DNA of 64,000 nucleotides from an uncultured Candidatus Rokubacteria bacterium. Lineage in GTDB: Bacteria > Methylomirabilota > Methylomirabilia > Rokubacteriales > DASRDR01. The notes below the pieces were generated by a model. That model was given only the letters and a program-made list of their open reading frames with translations. It was not told where the DNA came from and did not search any database. A program made the translations under genes and the position numbers. The DNA is taken from positions 1,536,001 to 1,600,000 of the forward strand of contig CAWDVE010000010.1 in NCBI GenBank assembly GCA_963805625.1, written 5' to 3'. This document shows positions 33,886 to 55,926 of this stretch, piece after piece; the stretch's first letter is position 1; each line of letters opens with the position of its first letter.

Positions 33886-34848
33886 ATGTCGACGCTGGGC
33901 GAACGAGCGGGACGGACGGCCCCCGGCGGGGCAGGAGTCTCGGGTGTCATCGGCGGGCCGGATCCTGACGGCCGGCGCCCGACGCCCACCACGGCCTTGC
34001 CGCCGCGACGGTCGGGCGGGGCTCGCCTTCGCAGCTGGGCGCGCAAGAACCCGCTCTCTGTGGCGGGCGCCGCCATCATGCTCGCGCTGGTAGCCATGGC
34101 GCTCCTCGCGCCCTATCTCCCCCTCTCGAACCCGATCCGCATGAACGTGCCGAAGCGCTTCTCCCCGCCCGGCGCGGACTTCTGGTTCGGGACGGACCAT
34201 CTCGGGCGGGACGTGTTCAGCCGGGTCGTGCACGGGGCGGCGTTCAGTCTCACGATCGGCGGCCTGACCATCCTGCTGGCCGGGGTGCCGGGGATCTTCG
34301 TCGGCATCCTCGCCGCGGCGGCGCCGCCCCGCCTCGCCGGACTCCTGATGCGCGTCCTCGACGTGCTGATGTCCTTCCCGGCCCTTCTCCTCGCGGTCGC
34401 GGTTGGCGCCGCGCTGGGCACGGGGGGGCGGAGCATCGTCATCGCGCTCGCGGTGGTCTACTTCCCGCGGATCGCGCGCATGACCCGTGGCATCGCCCTG
34501 TCCGTGATGACGCAGGAGTACGTCATCGCCTCCCGCGCCCTCGGCACCCCGATCCAGCGTCTCCTCCTCCGGACGGTGGTGCCGAACTGCCTCTCGGTCG
34601 TGGTCGTGCAGTGCAGCCTCTACTTCGCGGAGGTGCTGCTGGCCGAGGCGGCGCTCTCCTTCCTGGGGCTGGGCGAAGCGCCGCCCCGGCCGACGTGGGG
34701 CAACATGCTGTACGAAGCGCAGAAGAACATGCGGAACGCGCCCTGGCTGGCGATCTTCCCGGGCGCCGCGATCGCGGTGTCGGTGTTCGGGCTGAACCTC
34801 TTCGGTGATGCGGTTCGGGACGCGATGGACCCGCGCCTCAGGACCTGA
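33886..34848 (+). CDS. ABC transporter permease (DppC-like)
   Basis: FGTDHLGRD, EAALSFLGLG, PTWG, GDAVRD. Confidence 0.93.
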   Translation: MSTLGERAGRTAPGGAGVSGVIGGPDPDGRRPTPTTALPPRRSGGARLRSWARKNPLSVAGAAIMLALVAMALLAPYLPLSNPIRMNVPKRFSPPGADFWFGTDHLGRDVFSRVVHGAAFSLTIGGLTILLAGVPGIFVGILAAAAPPRLAGLLMRVLDVLMSFPALLLAVAVGAALGTGGRSIVIALAVVYFPRIARMTRGIALSVMTQEYVIASRALGTPIQRLLLRTVVPNCLSVVVVQCSLYFAEVLLAEAALSFLGLGEAPPRPTWGNMLYEAQKNMRNAPWLAIFPGAAIAVSVFGLNLFGDAVRDAMDPRLRT

Positions 34849-34871
34849 TCGCGCGAGCGAGCGGCGCGCGA

Positions 34872-34906
34872 ACGCCGGTGCGGCTCCAGGCGAGCCGCAC
34901 CGGCGT
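34872..34906. terminator. Strong GC hairpin between convergent genes
   Basis: ACGCCGGTGCGGCTC-CAGGC-GAGCCGCACCGGCGT, perfect 15-bp stem without a U-tract. Confidence 0.55.
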
Positions 34907-34975
34907 CGGGGTGCTCCTCATAGAAGTCGGAGGCTCGGGCTGGCCGAGCCCGGCGACAGCAGGTAGGCGGGGCCG

Positions 34976-35239
34976 CTAGGGCCGGATCGTCCGCTCGGCC
35001 GAGCGCAGGGTGTCGCTCACCTGCGCCTTGCCGTGATCGAGCATCTCCTCGGCCCGCCGAATGGGCGCGGAAGCGCGGTCGAACGCGCGCTCGGCCGTCT
35101 CCTCGACCGCGTGGAGTCGATCGGCGGCGCCCACGCGCGCCAGTCGGGTCTGCTCATCGAGGTAGGCCTGGATGTCGTCCCGGAAGAACCACACGATCAA
35201 ACCGCCCGTCAACACACCCGCGAGAAAGCCTCTCACCAT
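34976..35239 (-). CDS. Small membrane-anchored protein (YtxH-like)
   Basis: N-terminal TM (GFLAGVLTGGLIVWF) then helical charged region; GGAGG RBS. Confidence 0.7.
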   Translation of the reverse strand: MVRGFLAGVLTGGLIVWFFRDDIQAYLDEQTRLARVGAADRLHAVEETAERAFDRASAPIRRAEEMLDHGKAQVSDTLRSAERTIRP

Positions 35240-35336
35240 CGTTCCCCTCCTGGGCGTTCGGGGCCACTGGCCCGGCGCCGATCACGGTAGCACAAGCGCG
35301 CCCGCGAGGGGAGACAGGGCGCGGCGGGCGAGGCGG

Positions 35337-35990
35337 TCAGCCGGGCTGCGCGGAGCGCGGAGCGAGCCCGCCCTCGGGAGCGGCGCGCCGGGCTCTTGCT
35401 CGGGCGCGGCGCACCGCGTCGACGATCCGGATGGCGAAGAGGAGCGTCAGCCACAGGGCGTAGTAGTACGGCCCCTGCACGCCGACCTTCGCGAGCCAGA
35501 AGTAGTGGAGCACTCCCAGGATCGCGATCAGGTAGACGAGCCGGTGGAGCCGACGCCAGGTGACCGCGCCGAGCCGCCGGATCATCCGGGCGGTCGAGGT
35601 CGCCGCCAGGGGCAGGAGGAGGAGGAGCGCCGTGAAACCGACCGTGACGTACGGGCGCTTCATCACGTCCGTCGCCATCTCGGGCCAGTCGAAGAAGTGG
35701 TCGACGACGAGCCAGACGCTGAAGTGGAGCAGCGCGTGGGCAAAGGCGAAGAGTCCGAGCAGACGCCGCAACGTCACGGGCCACGACAGGCCAAACAGGA
35801 TGCGGAGCGGCGTCATGGTGAGGGAGAGGAGCAGGATCCGCAGGGTCCAATCGCCAAGCGTGTCCGTCGCCACGTCGATGGGATTCGTGACGAGGGGATC
35901 CGTGAAGAGCCGCCACAGGAGGCTCGCCAGCGGGGTGAGACACCCCACCCACACGACGGCCTTCAGCCCGATCCGTTGCCGGCGGGTCAC
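35337..35990 (-). CDS. msrQ: Methionine sulfoxide reductase heme-binding subunit
   Basis: TLGDW.L..L..SL.MTP, RRLLGLFAF, LAATS, WRRLHRLVY...H. Confidence 0.92.
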   Translation of the reverse strand: MTRRQRIGLKAVVWVGCLTPLASLLWRLFTDPLVTNPIDVATDTLGDWTLRILLLSLTMTPLRILFGLSWPVTLRRLLGLFAFAHALLHFSVWLVVDHFFDWPEMATDVMKRPYVTVGFTALLLLLPLAATSTARMIRRLGAVTWRRLHRLVYLIAILGVLHYFWLAKVGVQGPYYYALWLTLLFAIRIVDAVRRARARARRAAPEGGLAPRSAQPG

Positions 35991-36015
35991 CGCGCGCGAG
36001 GTCCCCCCGACGCGG

Positions 36016-36606
36016 CTACGCCCGCCCCTGGTCGGGGCGATCGCCGCGCTCCGGATCCGGTGGCGAGCGCCGCCAGAGGCCCTGCGACGGCACGCGGAGC
36101 GCCCGGTTGAACTTGCTGGACGCGTTCTCCCACGCGATGACCGCCGTCAGCTCCACGAGGGCGTCGTCGTCGTAGAAGCGACGGAGGCGGTCGAAGAGCT
36201 CGTCCCCGACCTCGCGATCGCTGAGCGTCATGGCGTCGGCGTACTCGAGGGCTACGCGCTCCGCGGCGCCGTAGAGCGGGCTGGTCGCATAATCCGGCAA
36301 CGCCAGGATCTTCTCCTCCGGCACCCCGAGCGCGCTGCCCACGGCAGCATTGATGTCCTGTCAGAACTCGCAGCGGTTCAGGAATGCCACGCGCCGGTTG
36401 ATGAGAGCCTTGAGCTTCTCGTCGATCAGCCCCGAGGCGTCGATGCCCGTCCACATCCCGCGTGCGCCGCGAAAGATCGACGGCCGGCGCGCGTACACGA
36501 GGTGGTTCAGGAGAGGGGCGCCCCAGTGCCTCGCCTGAGCGGCCAGCACCTTCTCGGCGTAGTCGTCCCCCGCCTCGCCCGGCCGAACGCCTTCGATGCG
36601 GGCCAC
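36016..36606 (-). CDS. AhpD/carboxymuconolactone-decarboxylase-like selenoprotein (UGA at 36363-36361 read as Sec)
   Basis: VARIEGV...RRVAFLNRCEF-UGA-QDINAAVGSALG...ERVALEYADAMT...ELTAVIAWEN..SKFNRAL in a single frame; hairpin 3' of the UGA. Confidence 0.85.
36333..36349 (-). promoter_or_regulatory. Putative bacterial SECIS element
   Basis: GCUGCC-GUG-GGCAGC stem-loop starting 12 nt after the UGA, extendable by a U-G pair. Confidence 0.7.
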
Positions 36607-36626
36607 CGCCCTGCCCTTCCCGGCGC

Positions 36627-37601
36627 CTAGTACTGCTTCTTGAGATCCATCCCGGTGTAGAGCGACGCGACCTGGTCGTAGCCGTTGAACATCAGTGTCT
36701 TCCGCCGCCGGAACTCGCCGATCCGCCGCTCGGTCGCCTGGCTCCAGCGGGGATGGTCGACGTTCGGGTTGACGTTCGAGTAGAACCCGTACTCGTTCGA
36801 CGCCGCCTTGTTCCAGCTGGTCTTCGGCTCGTCGGCGACGAGCCGGATTCGCACGAGAGACTTGGCGCTCTTGAACCCGTACTTCCAGGGCACCACGACG
36901 CGGACGGGGGCGCCGTTCTGGTTGGGAAGCACGTGCCCGTACATCCCGACCGTCAGGAGCGTCAACGGGTGCGTGGCCTCGTCGAGCCGGAGCCCCTCTA
37001 CATACGGCCAGTCGAGCGAGGAGCCGAAGAAGCTCGGCTTCGTGCCCGGCATCTGCTCGGGATCGACCAGGGTCTGGAACTCCACGTACTTGGCGGCGCC
37101 GGTGGGCTCGACCCGCTTGAGAAGCGCCGAGAGGGGGTACCCAATCCACGGGATGACCATCGACCAGCCCTCGACGCAGCGAAGGGCGTAGACGCGCTCC
37201 TCCAGAGGGGCCAGCCGCAGGATCTCGTCGATGTCGAAGGTCTTCGGCTTCTGGCAGAGACCGCCCACCTCCACCGTCCAGGGCCGGGGGCGGAGCGTGT
37301 GGGCGTTCAGGGCCGGATCGGATTTGTCGGTCCCGAACTCGTAGAAGTTGTTGTACGTCGTGGCGTTGTCCCAGGGCGTGGGCGGGTCGGTCACGCTCAC
37401 CGCCTGGTTTCGCGCCGCGGCCAGGGATTGGCCCTTCACCGCCGGCTTGAGGGCAGCTTCCGCCGGCGCGTCCGAGCCCCCCACCGTGGCGGCGGCAGCA
37501 GCGGCCGCACCGACCATGAAGGATCGCCGGTTCAGGTACACCCCCCGCGGCGTGATCTCCGACGGGGGCGGATCGTGCGGCCCCGGAATGCGGATCAGCA
37601 T
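36627..37601 (-). CDS. msrP: Methionine sulfoxide reductase catalytic molybdoenzyme
   Basis: SEITP, Tat motif [54 protein letters not shown]. Confidence 0.96.
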
Positions 37602-37609
37602 GGCTCCTC

Positions 37610-38797
37610 CTAGACTACGCCTCCCGCCCGCAGGCGGTCGTACTCGGCCCGCTCGAGTCCGAGCCGGCCGAGATAGATCTCTTCGTTGTCCGCCCCCACC
37701 TCGCGCACGCCGGCGTGCCGGATCGTCCCCGGCGTGCCTGTGAGGCGCGGCACGACCCCGGGCATGTGGACCGTCCCCAGACCCGGCTCCGGCACCGCCA
37801 CGATGTTCTCGCGGGCCTTCAGCTGCGGGTCCGCGAACAGGTCCCGCACCGAGTTCACCAGCGCGCACGGCACCTCGGCGGCATCGAGCGTGGACAGCGC
37901 ATCGGCGGCATCCCGCGCACCCACCCACGCCTGGACGAGCCCGTCCAGCTCGGCGCGCCCCGCGAGCCGGTCCCGCACCCCCGGAAACCGCGCGACCAGG
38001 TCCGGTGTTCCCATGGCCCGGGCCAGCCGGGCGAACATGCGGTCGTTGGTGCAGGCGACCGCCACCCAGCGGCCGTCCCGGCTCTCGTAGTGGTTGTGGG
38101 GCGCCGCGCTCTCGGCGGCCGAGCCGATGCGCTCCCGGACGTACCCGAGCGCCCCGAACACGGGGATCGCGTCGTCCAGTATCCGCACGATGGGCTCGTA
38201 GAGACCCAGGTCCACCACCTGCCCCTCGCCCGTCCGCTCGCGCGCTCTCAGCGCGATCATCGCCCCGAGCGCTCCCATGACCCCCGCCAGGTAGTCCGGC
38301 ACCGTCGGCGTCCCGGGGGTCACCGGAGGCCGGTCCGGGTAACCCGACAGATATGAGATGCCCCCGACCGCCGCCGCGATGCGTCCGAACCCCGGCCGCT
38401 CGCGGTACGGCCCCGTCTGGCCGAACGCCGAGATCCGGACCATCACGAGCCCAGGATTCTCGGCCCGCAGAGCCTCGTACCCGAGCCCCCAGCGCTCGAG
38501 GGTCCCCGGCCGGAAGTTCTCCGCGACCACGTCGACCCCCCGGCACAGCCGGCGGACCAGCGTCTGCCCGTCAGGATCCCGGAGGTTGCAGGTGATCGAC
38601 TTCTTGTTACGGGCATCGGAGAGCCACCAGAGCGACACGCCGTCGGCCTGGCGCCCGAGGCGCCGGAGGTCGTCCCCCACGCCGGGCTGCTCGACCTTGA
38701 TGACCTCGGCCCCGAACTCGCCGAGAAGCGTGGCGCACATCGGCGCCGCAATGAACGTGGCGAGGTCCAGGACGACGAGGCCGTCGAGCGCGCCCAC
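37610..38797 (-). CDS. CoA-transferase family III (CaiB/BaiF)
   Basis: [35 protein letters not shown]. Confidence 0.93.
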
Positions 38798-38839
38798 GCC
38801 CCTACCCGGAGAGCGCTGCGAGCGTGCATGGACCTAGAG

Positions 38840-38966
38840 AGCGGGGCCCGCTTCCGAGGGCGAGCATCCGGTGGGCTAGAGACACGCCGGTTAGCTTTGC
38901 GTTGGGGGTGAGTCCAGCGAATCGGGCCTGGGGCCGCAGATGCGAGCCCCGGAAGCGAGCCCTGCT
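38840..38966. repeat. Long imperfect inverted repeat (possible structured RNA or repeat element)
   Basis: AGCGGGGCCCGCTTCCG pairs with CGGAAGCGAGCCCTGCT; inner GCATC/GATGC also pair. Confidence 0.5.
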
Positions 38967-38983
38967 ATTCTGCGGGCGGCGTG

Positions 38984-40891
38984 TCAACGGAGGGCCTCGA
39001 GCACCTCGGCGACGACCTCGAAGCGGCCGAAGGATGGCATGAGATAGGCACCGGCGTACCGCCCGCGCACCGCTCCAAGGATGGCCTGGGCCGTCTCGAC
39101 CCCGACCCGGAGCGCATGGTCACCTGCATCGCGAAGCCGTGCCCGGACGGCGTCCGGCACCGTGATCCCCGGTACCTCGTTGTGCAGGAACTCGGCGTGG
39201 CGGAACGAGTGGAGCGGCAGGATGCCGACGACCAAGGGCACCGGGACGCGGCCTAGCCGCGCGAGGAACGCCTCGAGCTGCTCGAGGTCGTAGACCGGCT
39301 GCGTCTGGGCCCACATGGCGCCGGCGGCCACCTTGGCGTGGAGCCTGTCGATCTCCCGGGCCGGGTCGGCCGCGCCGGGGTCCACCGCGACCCCGATACC
39401 GAAGGCGGTGGGCTCGCCGATCGAGTTGCCCGCCGCGTCCACGCCTCGGTTCATGCCCGCGACGATCCGCACGAGGCCGATCGCGTCGACGTCGAAGACG
39501 GCCGTGGCGTTGACATAGTCGCCGGCGCGCGGAGGATCCCCGGTCATCGCGAGGATGTTCCGGACCCCGAGCGCGTGGGCGCCGAGGAGGTCACCCTGGA
39601 TGCCCATGAGGTTCCGATCGCGGCAAGTGAAGTGCATGCTGATGTCCAGGCCCGTCGCCTCGCGAACGAGGAGCGCGGTGGGCAAGACCGCCATCCGGAC
39701 GCGCCCGAGCGAGCCGTCGTTGATGTCGACGACATCGACACCCCGCTCGGCGAGGAGCTTCGCTCCCTGAACAAGCTTCTCGATGTTGTGGCCCCGCGGA
39801 GGATCGAGCTCCACCGTGACCAGGAACTCGCGGGCGTGGAGCCGCGAGAGGAGCCGCGAGGGCTCCGCGGCCACGCCGAGCGCCGGGGCATCATCCCGCT
39901 CCAGGGCGACGGGCGCGGACACCGACACGGCGCCCCGCGATGCGCCCGTTCCGCGCGCGTGGCGGTCCACGACCTCGCGCATCGCGCGGATGTGGGCCGG
40001 GGTGGTGCCGCAGCAGCCGCCGACGATCCGCGCCCCGGCGTCGAGCATGCGGGAGGCGTAGTCGGCCATGTACGCCGGCGACGAGAGGTAGATGAGCCGC
40101 TCGCCGTGCCGGCTCGGGAGTCCGGCGTTCGGCCTGATCGACACCCAGGCCTCGGGCGCCGCCTCGTGAAGGAGGACCCCCACGTCGTAGAGGACGCTCG
40201 AGCCCACGCCACAGTTGGCCCCGATGACCTGGACCGGCAGCGAGGCCAGTTCGCGAGCCACCTCGGCCGGGGCCTGGCCCCGAAACGTGACACGCTCGTC
40301 GTTGAACGCCATCTGGGCCACCAGAGGGAGATCGGCCGAGACGGCGCGGATGGCCGCCACGGCGAGCCGGAGCTCGCGAACGTCCGAGAAGGTCTCGGCG
40401 ACGAATCCATCCACCCCGCCCTCGAGCAACGCCTCCGCCTGCTCGCGGAAGGCGGCGACCGCCTCCGCCTCACCGAGCGTTCCCAGCGGAAGCAGGTACT
40501 TGCCGAGCGGCCCGATGGAGCCGAGGACGAGCACATCCCGGCCCATCGTCTCGCGGACGTCGCGCGCGAGCCTCGCGCCCGCCCGGTTGATGTCTCGGAC
40601 CCGCCCCTCGAGCCCGTGCATGGCGAGCTTGAAGCGGTTGGCGCCGAACGTGTTTGTCTCGAGCACGTCGGCGCCCGCGGCCACGTACTCCCGGTGGATC
40701 GACTGGACGGTCTTCGGGTCGTGGAGGTTCAGGACGTCGAAGCACGCATCGAGCGGGACGCCGCGGGCGTACAGCATCGTGCCCATGGCGCCGTCGGCGA
40801 GGAGCGGCCCTTCCTGGAGCCGCCGGCCGAGCGCCCCGGAACCCGTCTCGCTAGACATGGCCCCTCGGCTCGGGGCTCGCGGGCTAGACAT
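38984..40891 (-). CDS. yitJ: Bifunctional homocysteine S-methyltransferase / methylenetetrahydrofolate reductase (YitJ-type)
   Basis: DGAMGT, TNTFGAN, GANC, PNAGLP, GGCCGT; then ELDPP, HFTCRDRN, TGDPP, QTQPVYD. Confidence 0.92.
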   Translation of the reverse strand: MSSPRAPSRGAMSSETGSGALGRRLQEGPLLADGAMGTMLYARGVPLDACFDVLNLHDPKTVQSIHREYVAAGADVLETNTFGANRFKLAMHGLEGRVRDINRAGARLARDVRETMGRDVLVLGSIGPLGKYLLPLGTLGEAEAVAAFREQAEALLEGGVDGFVAETFSDVRELRLAVAAIRAVSADLPLVAQMAFNDERVTFRGQAPAEVARELASLPVQVIGANCGVGSSVLYDVGVLLHEAAPEAWVSIRPNAGLPSRHGERLIYLSSPAYMADYASRMLDAGARIVGGCCGTTPAHIRAMREVVDRHARGTGASRGAVSVSAPVALERDDAPALGVAAEPSRLLSRLHAREFLVTVELDPPRGHNIEKLVQGAKLLAERGVDVVDINDGSLGRVRMAVLPTALLVREATGLDISMHFTCRDRNLMGIQGDLLGAHALGVRNILAMTGDPPRAGDYVNATAVFDVDAIGLVRIVAGMNRGVDAAGNSIGEPTAFGIGVAVDPGAADPAREIDRLHAKVAAGAMWAQTQPVYDLEQLEAFLARLGRVPVPLVVGILPLHSFRHAEFLHNEVPGITVPDAVRARLRDAGDHALRVGVETAQAILGAVRGRYAGAYLMPSFGRFEVVAEVLEALR

Positions 40892-55362: not shown

Positions 55363-55926
55363 TCAGCGCGGCGGAATGAAGCAGAGCCCCTGGCTCTGGA
55401 CGCCAAGCGCCGTGTTGAACTTCGCGCGGAAATGCTCGACGGCGATCGTGGCGGCCAGCTCCACGATCTGCGGGACGGAGAAGTGCCGGCGCAGGGGCTC
55501 GAACTCGACGTCCGTCACAGCCGTGGGCGTCCGCGTTGCCGCTTCGGCGAATCCGAGCGCCGCCCGCTCCGGCTCGCTGAAGAGCGGGCTCTCCCGGAAC
55601 CGGTCCACGGCCGAGAGCTTCTCGAAGGTCGCGCCGTGGCTCATCCCCCGGGATGAGTTGATGTCCATTCAGAATGGGCATCCGACGAGCTGGGCGACCC
55701 GCAGGCAGACGAGATCACGAAGCTCCGCCGGAAGCTGTCCCGACTTCTCCAGGGCGACCGACAGCCCCGCCGCCGCGCGCACCAGAGGAGGACAGTGCGC
55801 CATCACGAGCGTGGGCGCCAGCGGGGCGCCCCACTGCTCCGTCTGCCGCCCCAGGACCTCTCGGATCTCGGCCGGCGCCGCCGCAGGGTCGATCGGCGGA
55901 ATGCGACCGGTGATTTCGTCCTTCAC
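55363..55926 (-). CDS. AhpD/CMD-like selenoprotein, second paralog (UGA at 55671-55669 read as Sec)
   Basis: ORFs 55669..55926 and 55363..55668 abut in frame: LRVAQLVGCPF-UGA-MDINSS...ERAALGFAEAAT...IVELAATIA..FRAKFNTAL. Confidence 0.85.
55640..55657 (-). promoter_or_regulatory. Putative bacterial SECIS element
   Basis: CUCAUCC-CGGG-GGAUGAG perfect 7-bp stem starting 11 nt after the UGA. Confidence 0.72.

Follow-up and report, generated by a model that had tools for sequence, protein, structure and literature searches.

The subject of this analysis is a predicted selenoprotein gene situated between msrP and msrQ, the genes of the methionine-sulfoxide reductase system MsrPQ, in a 64,000-nucleotide (nt) stretch of DNA (hereafter, the window) from an uncultured Candidatus Rokubacteria bacterium (assembly GCA_963805625.1, contig CAWDVE010000010.1, positions 1,536,001 to 1,600,000). 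All genes of the locus lie on the minus strand (Table 1), and its closest named relatives are metagenome-assembled genomes of Rokubacteria/Methylomirabilia. The profile matches (NF003767, TIGR01409, NF003831) identify a molybdenum-molybdopterin MsrP exported by twin-arginine translocation (Tat) and a heme-b MsrQ in one operon. The msrP frame ends in TAG at 36627 and is followed, after a spacer of 20 nt, by a GTG at 36606, which opens a frame of 196 codons with one in-frame TGA (NRCEF*QDIN; the next codon is CAG) and a closing TAG ending at 36016. The GTG start of msrQ, at 35990, then follows 25 nt past this stop. An initial annotation, made from the sequence alone, had described this arrangement, and its coordinates, frame length, TGA position (36363-36361), following CAG codon and both spacer lengths were all exact.

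Because the spacers measure 20 and 25 nt, we infer that the selenoprotein gene is co-transcribed with msrPQ. Contigs from four RNA-library runs cover parts of msrP, the selenoprotein gene and msrQ, mostly at 85-95% identity, and the share of words held by these runs is only 0.07-0.10. Among the pieces listed, none bridges two genes by 31 letters, and such contigs cannot show transcription. A scan of positions 34800-39100 returned no promoter or terminator and is uninformative at this G+C content.

Table 1. Coordinates of the features of the msrPQ locus (positions in the window) and of related genes near msrP in other loci.
Feature	Position	Strand	Basis
Coenzyme A (CoA)-transferase family III (CaiB-like) gene	37610..38797	-	Pfam PF02515, 375.8 bits
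msrP, Tat-exported molybdopterin methionine-sulfoxide reductase, 324 amino acids (aa)	36627..37601	-	NF003767, 474 bits (cut-off 207); TIGR01409 Tat signal
Predicted selenoprotein gene of AhpD/carboxymuconolactone decarboxylase (CMD) fold, 196 aa, C79-E-F-U82, NF053654 GroundWater_YciW member	36016..36606	-	Profile matches; model; solved relatives
Cys79 codon, first residue of CxxU	36370..36372	-	Cys in 76/76 orthologues of at least 50% identity
In-frame TGA, predicted selenocysteine 82	36361..36363	-	Stop at the column in 76/76 orthologues of at least 50% identity
Hairpin resembling a selenocysteine insertion sequence (SECIS), 5-bp stem, 5-nt loop, +16 to +30 from the U of the UGA	36334..36348	-	Conserved pairing
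msrQ, heme-b/flavin mononucleotide (FMN) membrane subunit, 217 aa	35337..35990	-	NF003831, 160 bits (cut-off 130)
Second AhpD-like subfamily near msrP	L054:778-1347, L061:933-1475, L175:1551-2082, L216:7142-7675 (approximate starts)		

The in-frame TGA and the encoded protein

The internal TGA of the gene is very likely read as selenocysteine (Sec). Homologues were scanned in GTDB and in metagenomes; both scans are samples, and all figures from them, here and below, hold among the matches listed (75 GTDB and 80 metagenome loci). The TGA column could be aligned in 74 of the GTDB loci, the 75th not reaching the site, and is occupied by TGA in 65, by Ile in one and by Cys in eight; these eight, all at no more than 40% identity, are the kind of homologue that the initial annotation had proposed to look for. 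TGA also stands in 80 of 80 metagenome loci, which brings the total to 145 of 154 aligned homologous loci from many phyla. Contigs of three DNA runs span the codon, with no change there among the differences listed, and one of these contigs has no differences but may stem from the sample in which the genome originated. The pooled ratio of nonsynonymous to synonymous substitution rates (dN/dS), taken over ten related, non-independent genomes, is 0.18 before and 0.14 after the TGA, with 0.12 for msrP and 0.26 for msrQ, and both halves of the frame are, by this measure, under purifying selection.

Directly 3' of the UGA lies a SECIS-like hairpin, recognised by its pairing, a compensatory pair and synonymous constraint. 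Its stem pairs in 99% of 305 cells, compared with 16-65% in slid controls, and the observed values are reached by 6-7 of 500 shuffles, a weak result when taken alone. Ala87 is encoded by GCT in 59 of 61 orthologues, whereas GCT accounts for 110 of the 1326 Ala codons at other places in the gene, and Ser91 has AGY in 58 of 58 orthologues; this synonymous constraint is a stronger sign of the hairpin than the pairing statistics.

The genome provides matches to selA (576 bits) and to selD (395 bits), the latter with a TGA of its own, as well as a tRNA-SeC(tca). The remaining gene of the Sec machinery, selB, is located at G000:C21:223609-225488 (G000 being the genome of the window), where a frameshift in a C7/G5 homopolymer breaks it in two. 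Since selB is intact in five of five same-genus genomes and the break falls at a homopolymer, the frameshift is likely an assembly error. We counted the set of selA, selB, selC and selD as present on this basis; of the machinery that the initial annotation had asked to be confirmed, selA, selD and the tRNA were found as expected, and selB is intact in the relatives but interrupted in the assembly at hand.

The read-through protein matches NF053654 ('YciW-related (seleno)protein') with 332.8 bits, against a cut-off of 310, over model positions 1-179 of 179, and PF02627 with 40.5 bits. Its structural model is all-helical (mean predicted local distance difference test score, pLDDT, of 93.2) with a helix starting at residue 80, and the PF02627 match, the model and the sequence matches in the PDB agree on a CMD/AhpD helical fold with C-x-x-C(U) at a helix start. 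The initial assignment as an AhpD/CMD-fold CxxU selenoprotein gene holds up on the NF053654 score and the TGA counts. A signal or membrane segment is absent, with no hydrophobic N-terminus and a maximum 19-residue hydropathy of 0.46 in the first 40 aa, and a cytoplasmic location, as annotated initially, is supported by these values.

Among proteins of solved structure, Atu0492, PA0269 and the debrominase Bmp8 are the nearest relatives, of which Bmp8 (6ohi) is the best match in a single-sequence PDB search (E 2.3e-12), and Atu0492 and PA0269 rank above it in a family-profile search (PA0269 at E 7e-23). In PA0269 and other thiol AhpDs, the CxxC is served by a Glu-His-water relay, formed in PA0269 by Glu36 and His55 (PMC3141380). 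These residues align with Ala67 (in 65 of 76 orthologues) and Asn86 (in 74 of 76), which means that neither the relay His at the second Cys +4 nor the Glu at the first Cys -12 was found. Asn86 and Ala67 thus stand where thiol AhpDs have the His and Glu for activating their catalytic Cys, as one would expect if a selenol can do without a base. Selenols are ionised at neutral pH, and in M. tuberculosis AhpD the second Cys is the attacking one. For Bmp8, we take the catalytic residues to be the first Cys with His88 and Asn170; in a pairwise alignment, the latter two fall on Ile85 and Ser164 of the selenoprotein and the first Cys is kept. The inactive Bmp8 mutant 6ohj carries Ala at this first Cys.

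Distribution and history of the arrangement

Among the 14 same-genus genomes searched, msrP, the selenoprotein gene and msrQ are complete in 11, and one more has msrP and the gene at a contig end. The two others, G006 and G007, lack the insert, with msrP-msrQ distances of 72 and 213 nt, respectively. In a quick tree of MsrP and MsrQ, G007 branches off first within the genus, and G006 is nested among the carriers. The spacer of G006 (L041:1425-1478) joins the beginning of the selenoprotein gene, with its ribosome-binding site and nine codons, directly to the sequence that precedes msrQ, and it encodes a 17-codon open reading frame whose stop overlaps the msrQ start; judging from these remnants, it is a deletion scar of the selenoprotein gene. 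These comparisons show that the gene was gained once, after G007 had split off, and deleted once, in G006. The G006 genome, which is 68% complete, keeps msrP, msrQ, selA and selB, and because msrPQ was kept when the gene was deleted, the gene would not be needed for MsrPQ. Other DNA has entered the gap as well: in G003, a DUF1330 gene (L013:1176-1475) separates msrP from the selenoprotein gene, and 240-290 nt of other DNA is found in three genomes.

Outside the genus, we compared 94 msrP loci of the phylum, which are the higher-scoring part of the matches listed and omit two loci from unpublished genomes. An AhpD-like gene is present in the msrP-msrQ gap, which measures at most 409 nt, in none of the 92 loci with msrQ in view. 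The synteny that the initial annotation had proposed to search for is, in this way, confirmed within the genus and missing from these 92 loci, and a general three-part Mo, Se and heme system is not supported. An obligate third subunit would co-occur and remain syntenic wherever msrPQ occurs, a pattern at odds with its absence from these 92 loci and from G007 and its deletion in G006. Sequence comparison of the partner proteins also revealed no MsrP or MsrQ columns specific to carriers, only genus-wide differences; in MsrQ, no column sets the carriers apart from both G006 and G007, and Arg75-Arg76 of MsrQ is invariant in 66 MsrQ sequences, insert-bearing or not.

Seen from the selenoprotein gene, msrP or msrQ lies in the flanks of 5 of the 75 GTDB loci, all of them Rokubacteria/Methylomirabilia copies at 84-95% identity, and of 4 of the 80 metagenome loci, all at 84-90% identity; a fifth metagenome locus gave only a 26% match, on the other strand. 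The flanks extended up to 3 kb (GTDB) and 2.5 kb (metagenome) and were often shorter. Neither gene was found within 1.5 kb at 10 orthologue loci of another Rokubacteria family, no msrPQ was found near the close orthologues in Acidobacteria, Chloroflexi and Rubrobacter, and two of three genomes tested, of unstated completeness, gave no msrP match at E 1e-30. In a quick gene tree (95 rows, with 11 removed for being short or duplicates), all 13 copies linked to msrP group in a single clade (Shimodaira-Hasegawa-like approximate likelihood ratio test, SH-aLRT, 96 in the drawn tree and 99 in the group table) placed among Acidobacteria/Chloroflexi orthologues of 70-78% identity, and the orthologues of the other Rokubacteria family branch apart from it. 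The simplest history would be one insertion, probably of a laterally acquired gene, followed by one loss. Paralogues are common, with 1-7 matches in 58 of 61 Rokubacteria genomes.

Other redox selenoproteins also occur around msrP. A different AhpD-like subfamily is found upstream of msrP in 4 of the 94 outside loci, representing four genera and two families (Table 1). It is about 35% identical, keeps the TGA, lacks the first Cys (SxY* or AAY*) and scores 121 bits, below the NF053654 cut-off; three copies adjoin msrP and one is 3.7 kb away, each accompanied by a small Met-rich exported peptide. This second subfamily is present in 45 of 151 genomes of the phylum. Additionally, 40 of the 94 outside loci (among them L216:5789-6325) have a thioredoxin-like redoxin in the vicinity of msrP, featuring a signal peptide, the motif WT[YF]G*[IY]NC and, often, a neighbouring two-component system. 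The first position of its xxxC motif is an in-frame stop in 18 cases (TGA where checked), Cys in 3, and cut off or gapped in 19. A link through shared stress between the AhpD-like selenoproteins and msrPQ is plausible in view of these neighbourhoods.

Proposed function and competing explanations

We consider it fairly probable that the locus holds an intact, conserved Sec gene of the AhpD/YciW family inside msrPQ, the product of which would remove oxidants in the cytoplasm in parallel to the MsrPQ electron chain. The selenolate of Sec82 would attack the oxidant, i.e. hypochlorous acid (HOCl), chloramines or hydroperoxides, Cys79 would resolve the product to a selenenyl-sulfide, and a cytoplasmic dithiol, for example a lipoyl protein, would re-reduce it as in the case of AhpD, which is recycled by lipoyl proteins (PMC8945050). 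The gene would have been inserted once and kept since it shares the inducing stress of msrPQ, and we infer co-expression because both would answer the same stress. Three features together point to a Sec-dependent reductase of HOCl, chloramines or peroxides: Sec occupies the second position, the relay has been lost, and a sister subfamily has Sec but no first Cys. As to the stress itself, the AhpD-family protein RclX/RcsA is reported to protect P. aeruginosa against HOCl (PMC7950407, PMC9751292), and MsrP to serve in HOCl defence (PMC4436054).

Several observations weigh against this reading. Covariation in the hairpin is thin, with one pair doubly changed, in two sequences, and the folding energy of the 74 nt from the UGA gives no signal (z 0.47), so the case for the hairpin is one of conservation. 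The selB gene is frameshifted in the assembly. Neighbour clustering of 58 orthologue loci yielded no recurring redox neighbour; the commonest neighbour families, at 9-10 of the 58 loci, include PNPOx-like and GntR-aminotransferase genes. For the second AhpD-like subfamily, msrP is no more than 5 kb away in only 5 of the 45 genomes that have it, in a tally that includes one unpublished genome, and these cases, coming from related genomes that are not independent, may go back to one ancestral event. Furthermore, without the His/Glu relay the chemistry could be a different one, and a gene that was inserted once and is retained by a single genus could be a passenger.

Such a passenger would be a mobile selenoprotein gene that landed once in the msrP-msrQ gap, is kept for a function of its own and has no tie to MsrPQ apart from using its promoter, which we regard as rather unlikely. 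It would agree with the single origin in the quick tree, with the lack of msrP/msrQ near 70 of the 75 GTDB and 76 of the 80 metagenome loci and near the 10 orthologue loci of another Rokubacteria family, with the readiness of the gap to take up the DUF1330 gene and other DNA, and with the several paralogues in many Rokubacteria. Against a passenger speak the tight spacing, which 12 of 14 relatives retain even at identities as low as about 75%, and the recurrence of other redox selenoproteins beside msrPQ in the same order. Halogen removal by a Bmp8-like enzyme (PMC7918430), which would dehalogenate small molecules that become chlorinated or brominated under hypohalite stress, appears improbable. 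Sec-dependent deiodinases are halogen-removing selenoenzymes, no solved structure gives a better single-sequence match than Bmp8, neither His nor Glu of the peroxidase relay is present, and the gene sits in a reactive-chlorine defence operon. Nevertheless, Atu0492 and PA0269 outrank Bmp8 by family profile, the mutation in 6ohj concerns the first Cys whereas Sec here occupies the second position, and the presumed Bmp8 residues His88 and Asn170 align with Ile and Ser.

The initial annotation had offered two roles for the selenoprotein, namely handling of the same oxidant in the cytoplasm, which stays plausible, or supply of electrons to MsrQ. As a third MsrPQ component, the reduced selenoprotein would donate to the cytoplasmic FMN site of MsrQ and replace the E. 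coli flavin reductase Fre. This would fit the position between both genes with 20- and 25-nt gaps, the cytoplasmic location and the debate on the physiological donor of MsrQ, for which quinones look too oxidising (PMC12525009), and, if true, it would bear on that electron-donor question. The distribution argues against it: no such operon gene exists in 92 of 92 other msrPQ loci and in two same-genus genomes, and close orthologues occur without msrPQ nearby, two of three genomes lacking an msrP match (E 1e-30). In addition, the Arg-Arg pair, responsible for FMN binding in E. coli, is retained in MsrQ, which has no carrier-specific Cys, and AhpD proteins are described as acceptors from lipoyl or flavoprotein systems (PMC8945050). 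Since the gene is dispensable for MsrPQ and genus-limited, donation of electrons to MsrQ is unlikely, and we would give the third-component explanation only a very small chance. The same slight probability attaches to the broader idea of a genus-specific wire leading from Se via flavin and heme to Mo for periplasmic repair, as one case of a wider Rokubacteria habit of building Se-rich reactive-chlorine modules around msrPQ. There is practically no room, lastly, for a nonsense mutation, a sequencing error or two separate open reading frames: the frameshifted selB would be in line with such an explanation, but TGA recurs in homologues from many phyla, no restart codon follows it, the part after the TGA is constrained (dN/dS 0.14) as are the synonymous sites of the hairpin, and selB is intact in the five relatives, with its break at the homopolymer.

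Known systems and neighbouring genes

CxxU selenoproteins of the AhpD-like 1 / COG2128 (YciW) type are tabulated in PMC9312934 and PMC2398784. The protein described here resembles NF053654 / AhpD-like COG2128 in its full-length match above the cut-off, its CxxU and its Cys homologues, and differs in context only, being located inside msrPQ in one genus whereas other members reside in unrelated neighbourhoods. The initial annotation had considered that the arrangement could be undescribed, and indeed the literature found contains no description of a selenoprotein between msrP and msrQ, although supplementary selenoproteome tables could list the gene; the protein family, on the other hand, is already catalogued in the sources just named. 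Only the placement is new: a single genus of uncultured Rokubacteria has the gene between msrP and msrQ. For annotation, the analysis rescues a gene that gene callers split. The literature found contains no tested function for NF053654, and the recruitment to msrPQ, along with the second AhpD-like Sec subfamily by msrP with its Met-rich peptide, offers a first hypothesis, namely removal of reactive chlorine or peroxide. Having lost the His/Glu relay throughout, the family, in turn, lends itself to testing cleanly whether Sec takes the place of base catalysis in the AhpD fold.

Several msrPQ operons are known to include accessory genes, for example bcrXQP of Brucella (PMC10151825), and MrpX with YedY1/YedZ1 of Azospira suillum is an accessory reactive-chlorine system (PMC4436054). 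The Azospira and Brucella systems, E. coli MsrPQ (YedYZ) with Fre and the locus presented here have in common a Tat-exported MsrP and an MsrQ with the Arg-Arg pair, but at this locus the accessory gene lies between msrP and msrQ and encodes a cytoplasmic selenoprotein. In related Rokubacteria, a Met-rich peptide resembling MrpX is encoded near msrP; such a peptide was not found at the msrPQ locus of the window. RclX/RcsA, PA0269 and M. tuberculosis AhpD share the AhpD-like all-helical fold and a CxxC-type motif, whereas the protein here has Sec for the second Cys and Asn/Ala for the relay His/Glu. Bmp8 (6ohi) is similar in family, length class and its rank as the best single-sequence PDB match; it differs in not being nearest by profile, in the first Cys being the one mutated in 6ohj and in its presumed His and Asn, which are not conserved. 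No gene cluster for a brominated product was seen among the flanking genes examined.

Upstream of msrP, the CaiB-like gene ends 8 nt (GAGGAGCC) before the msrP ATG, precedes msrP in 14 of 14 same-genus msrP loci (L034-L047) and probably shares the msrP transcript. Two genes upstream of msrP, the window contains a gene for a fused homocysteine S-methyltransferase/methylenetetrahydrofolate reductase (MTHFR) of methionine synthesis (38984-40891, minus strand). Every family-level locus checked has this gene near msrP, and no locus of the other families does.

Soil Rokubacteria use several AhpD-like selenoproteins, with two in the window and further subfamilies in relatives. The second AhpD-like CxxU gene of the window (GCPF*MDIN; 55363-55926, minus strand, TGA at 55671-55669) encodes a protein 41% identical to the msrPQ-borne one and scores 134 against the NF053654 cut-off of 310; its TGA-bearing relatives occur across the family. 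In L227 and L228, the Met-rich peptide adjoins the second AhpD-like subfamily without msrP in view. The genome of the window also carries a Cys version of the redoxin (G000:C21:82521-82988), as well as four more thioredoxin- or peroxiredoxin-like frames whose redox motif coincides with an in-frame stop (G000:C21:69401, C4:168311, C10:464027 and C11:170730), which suggests a large predicted selenoproteome.

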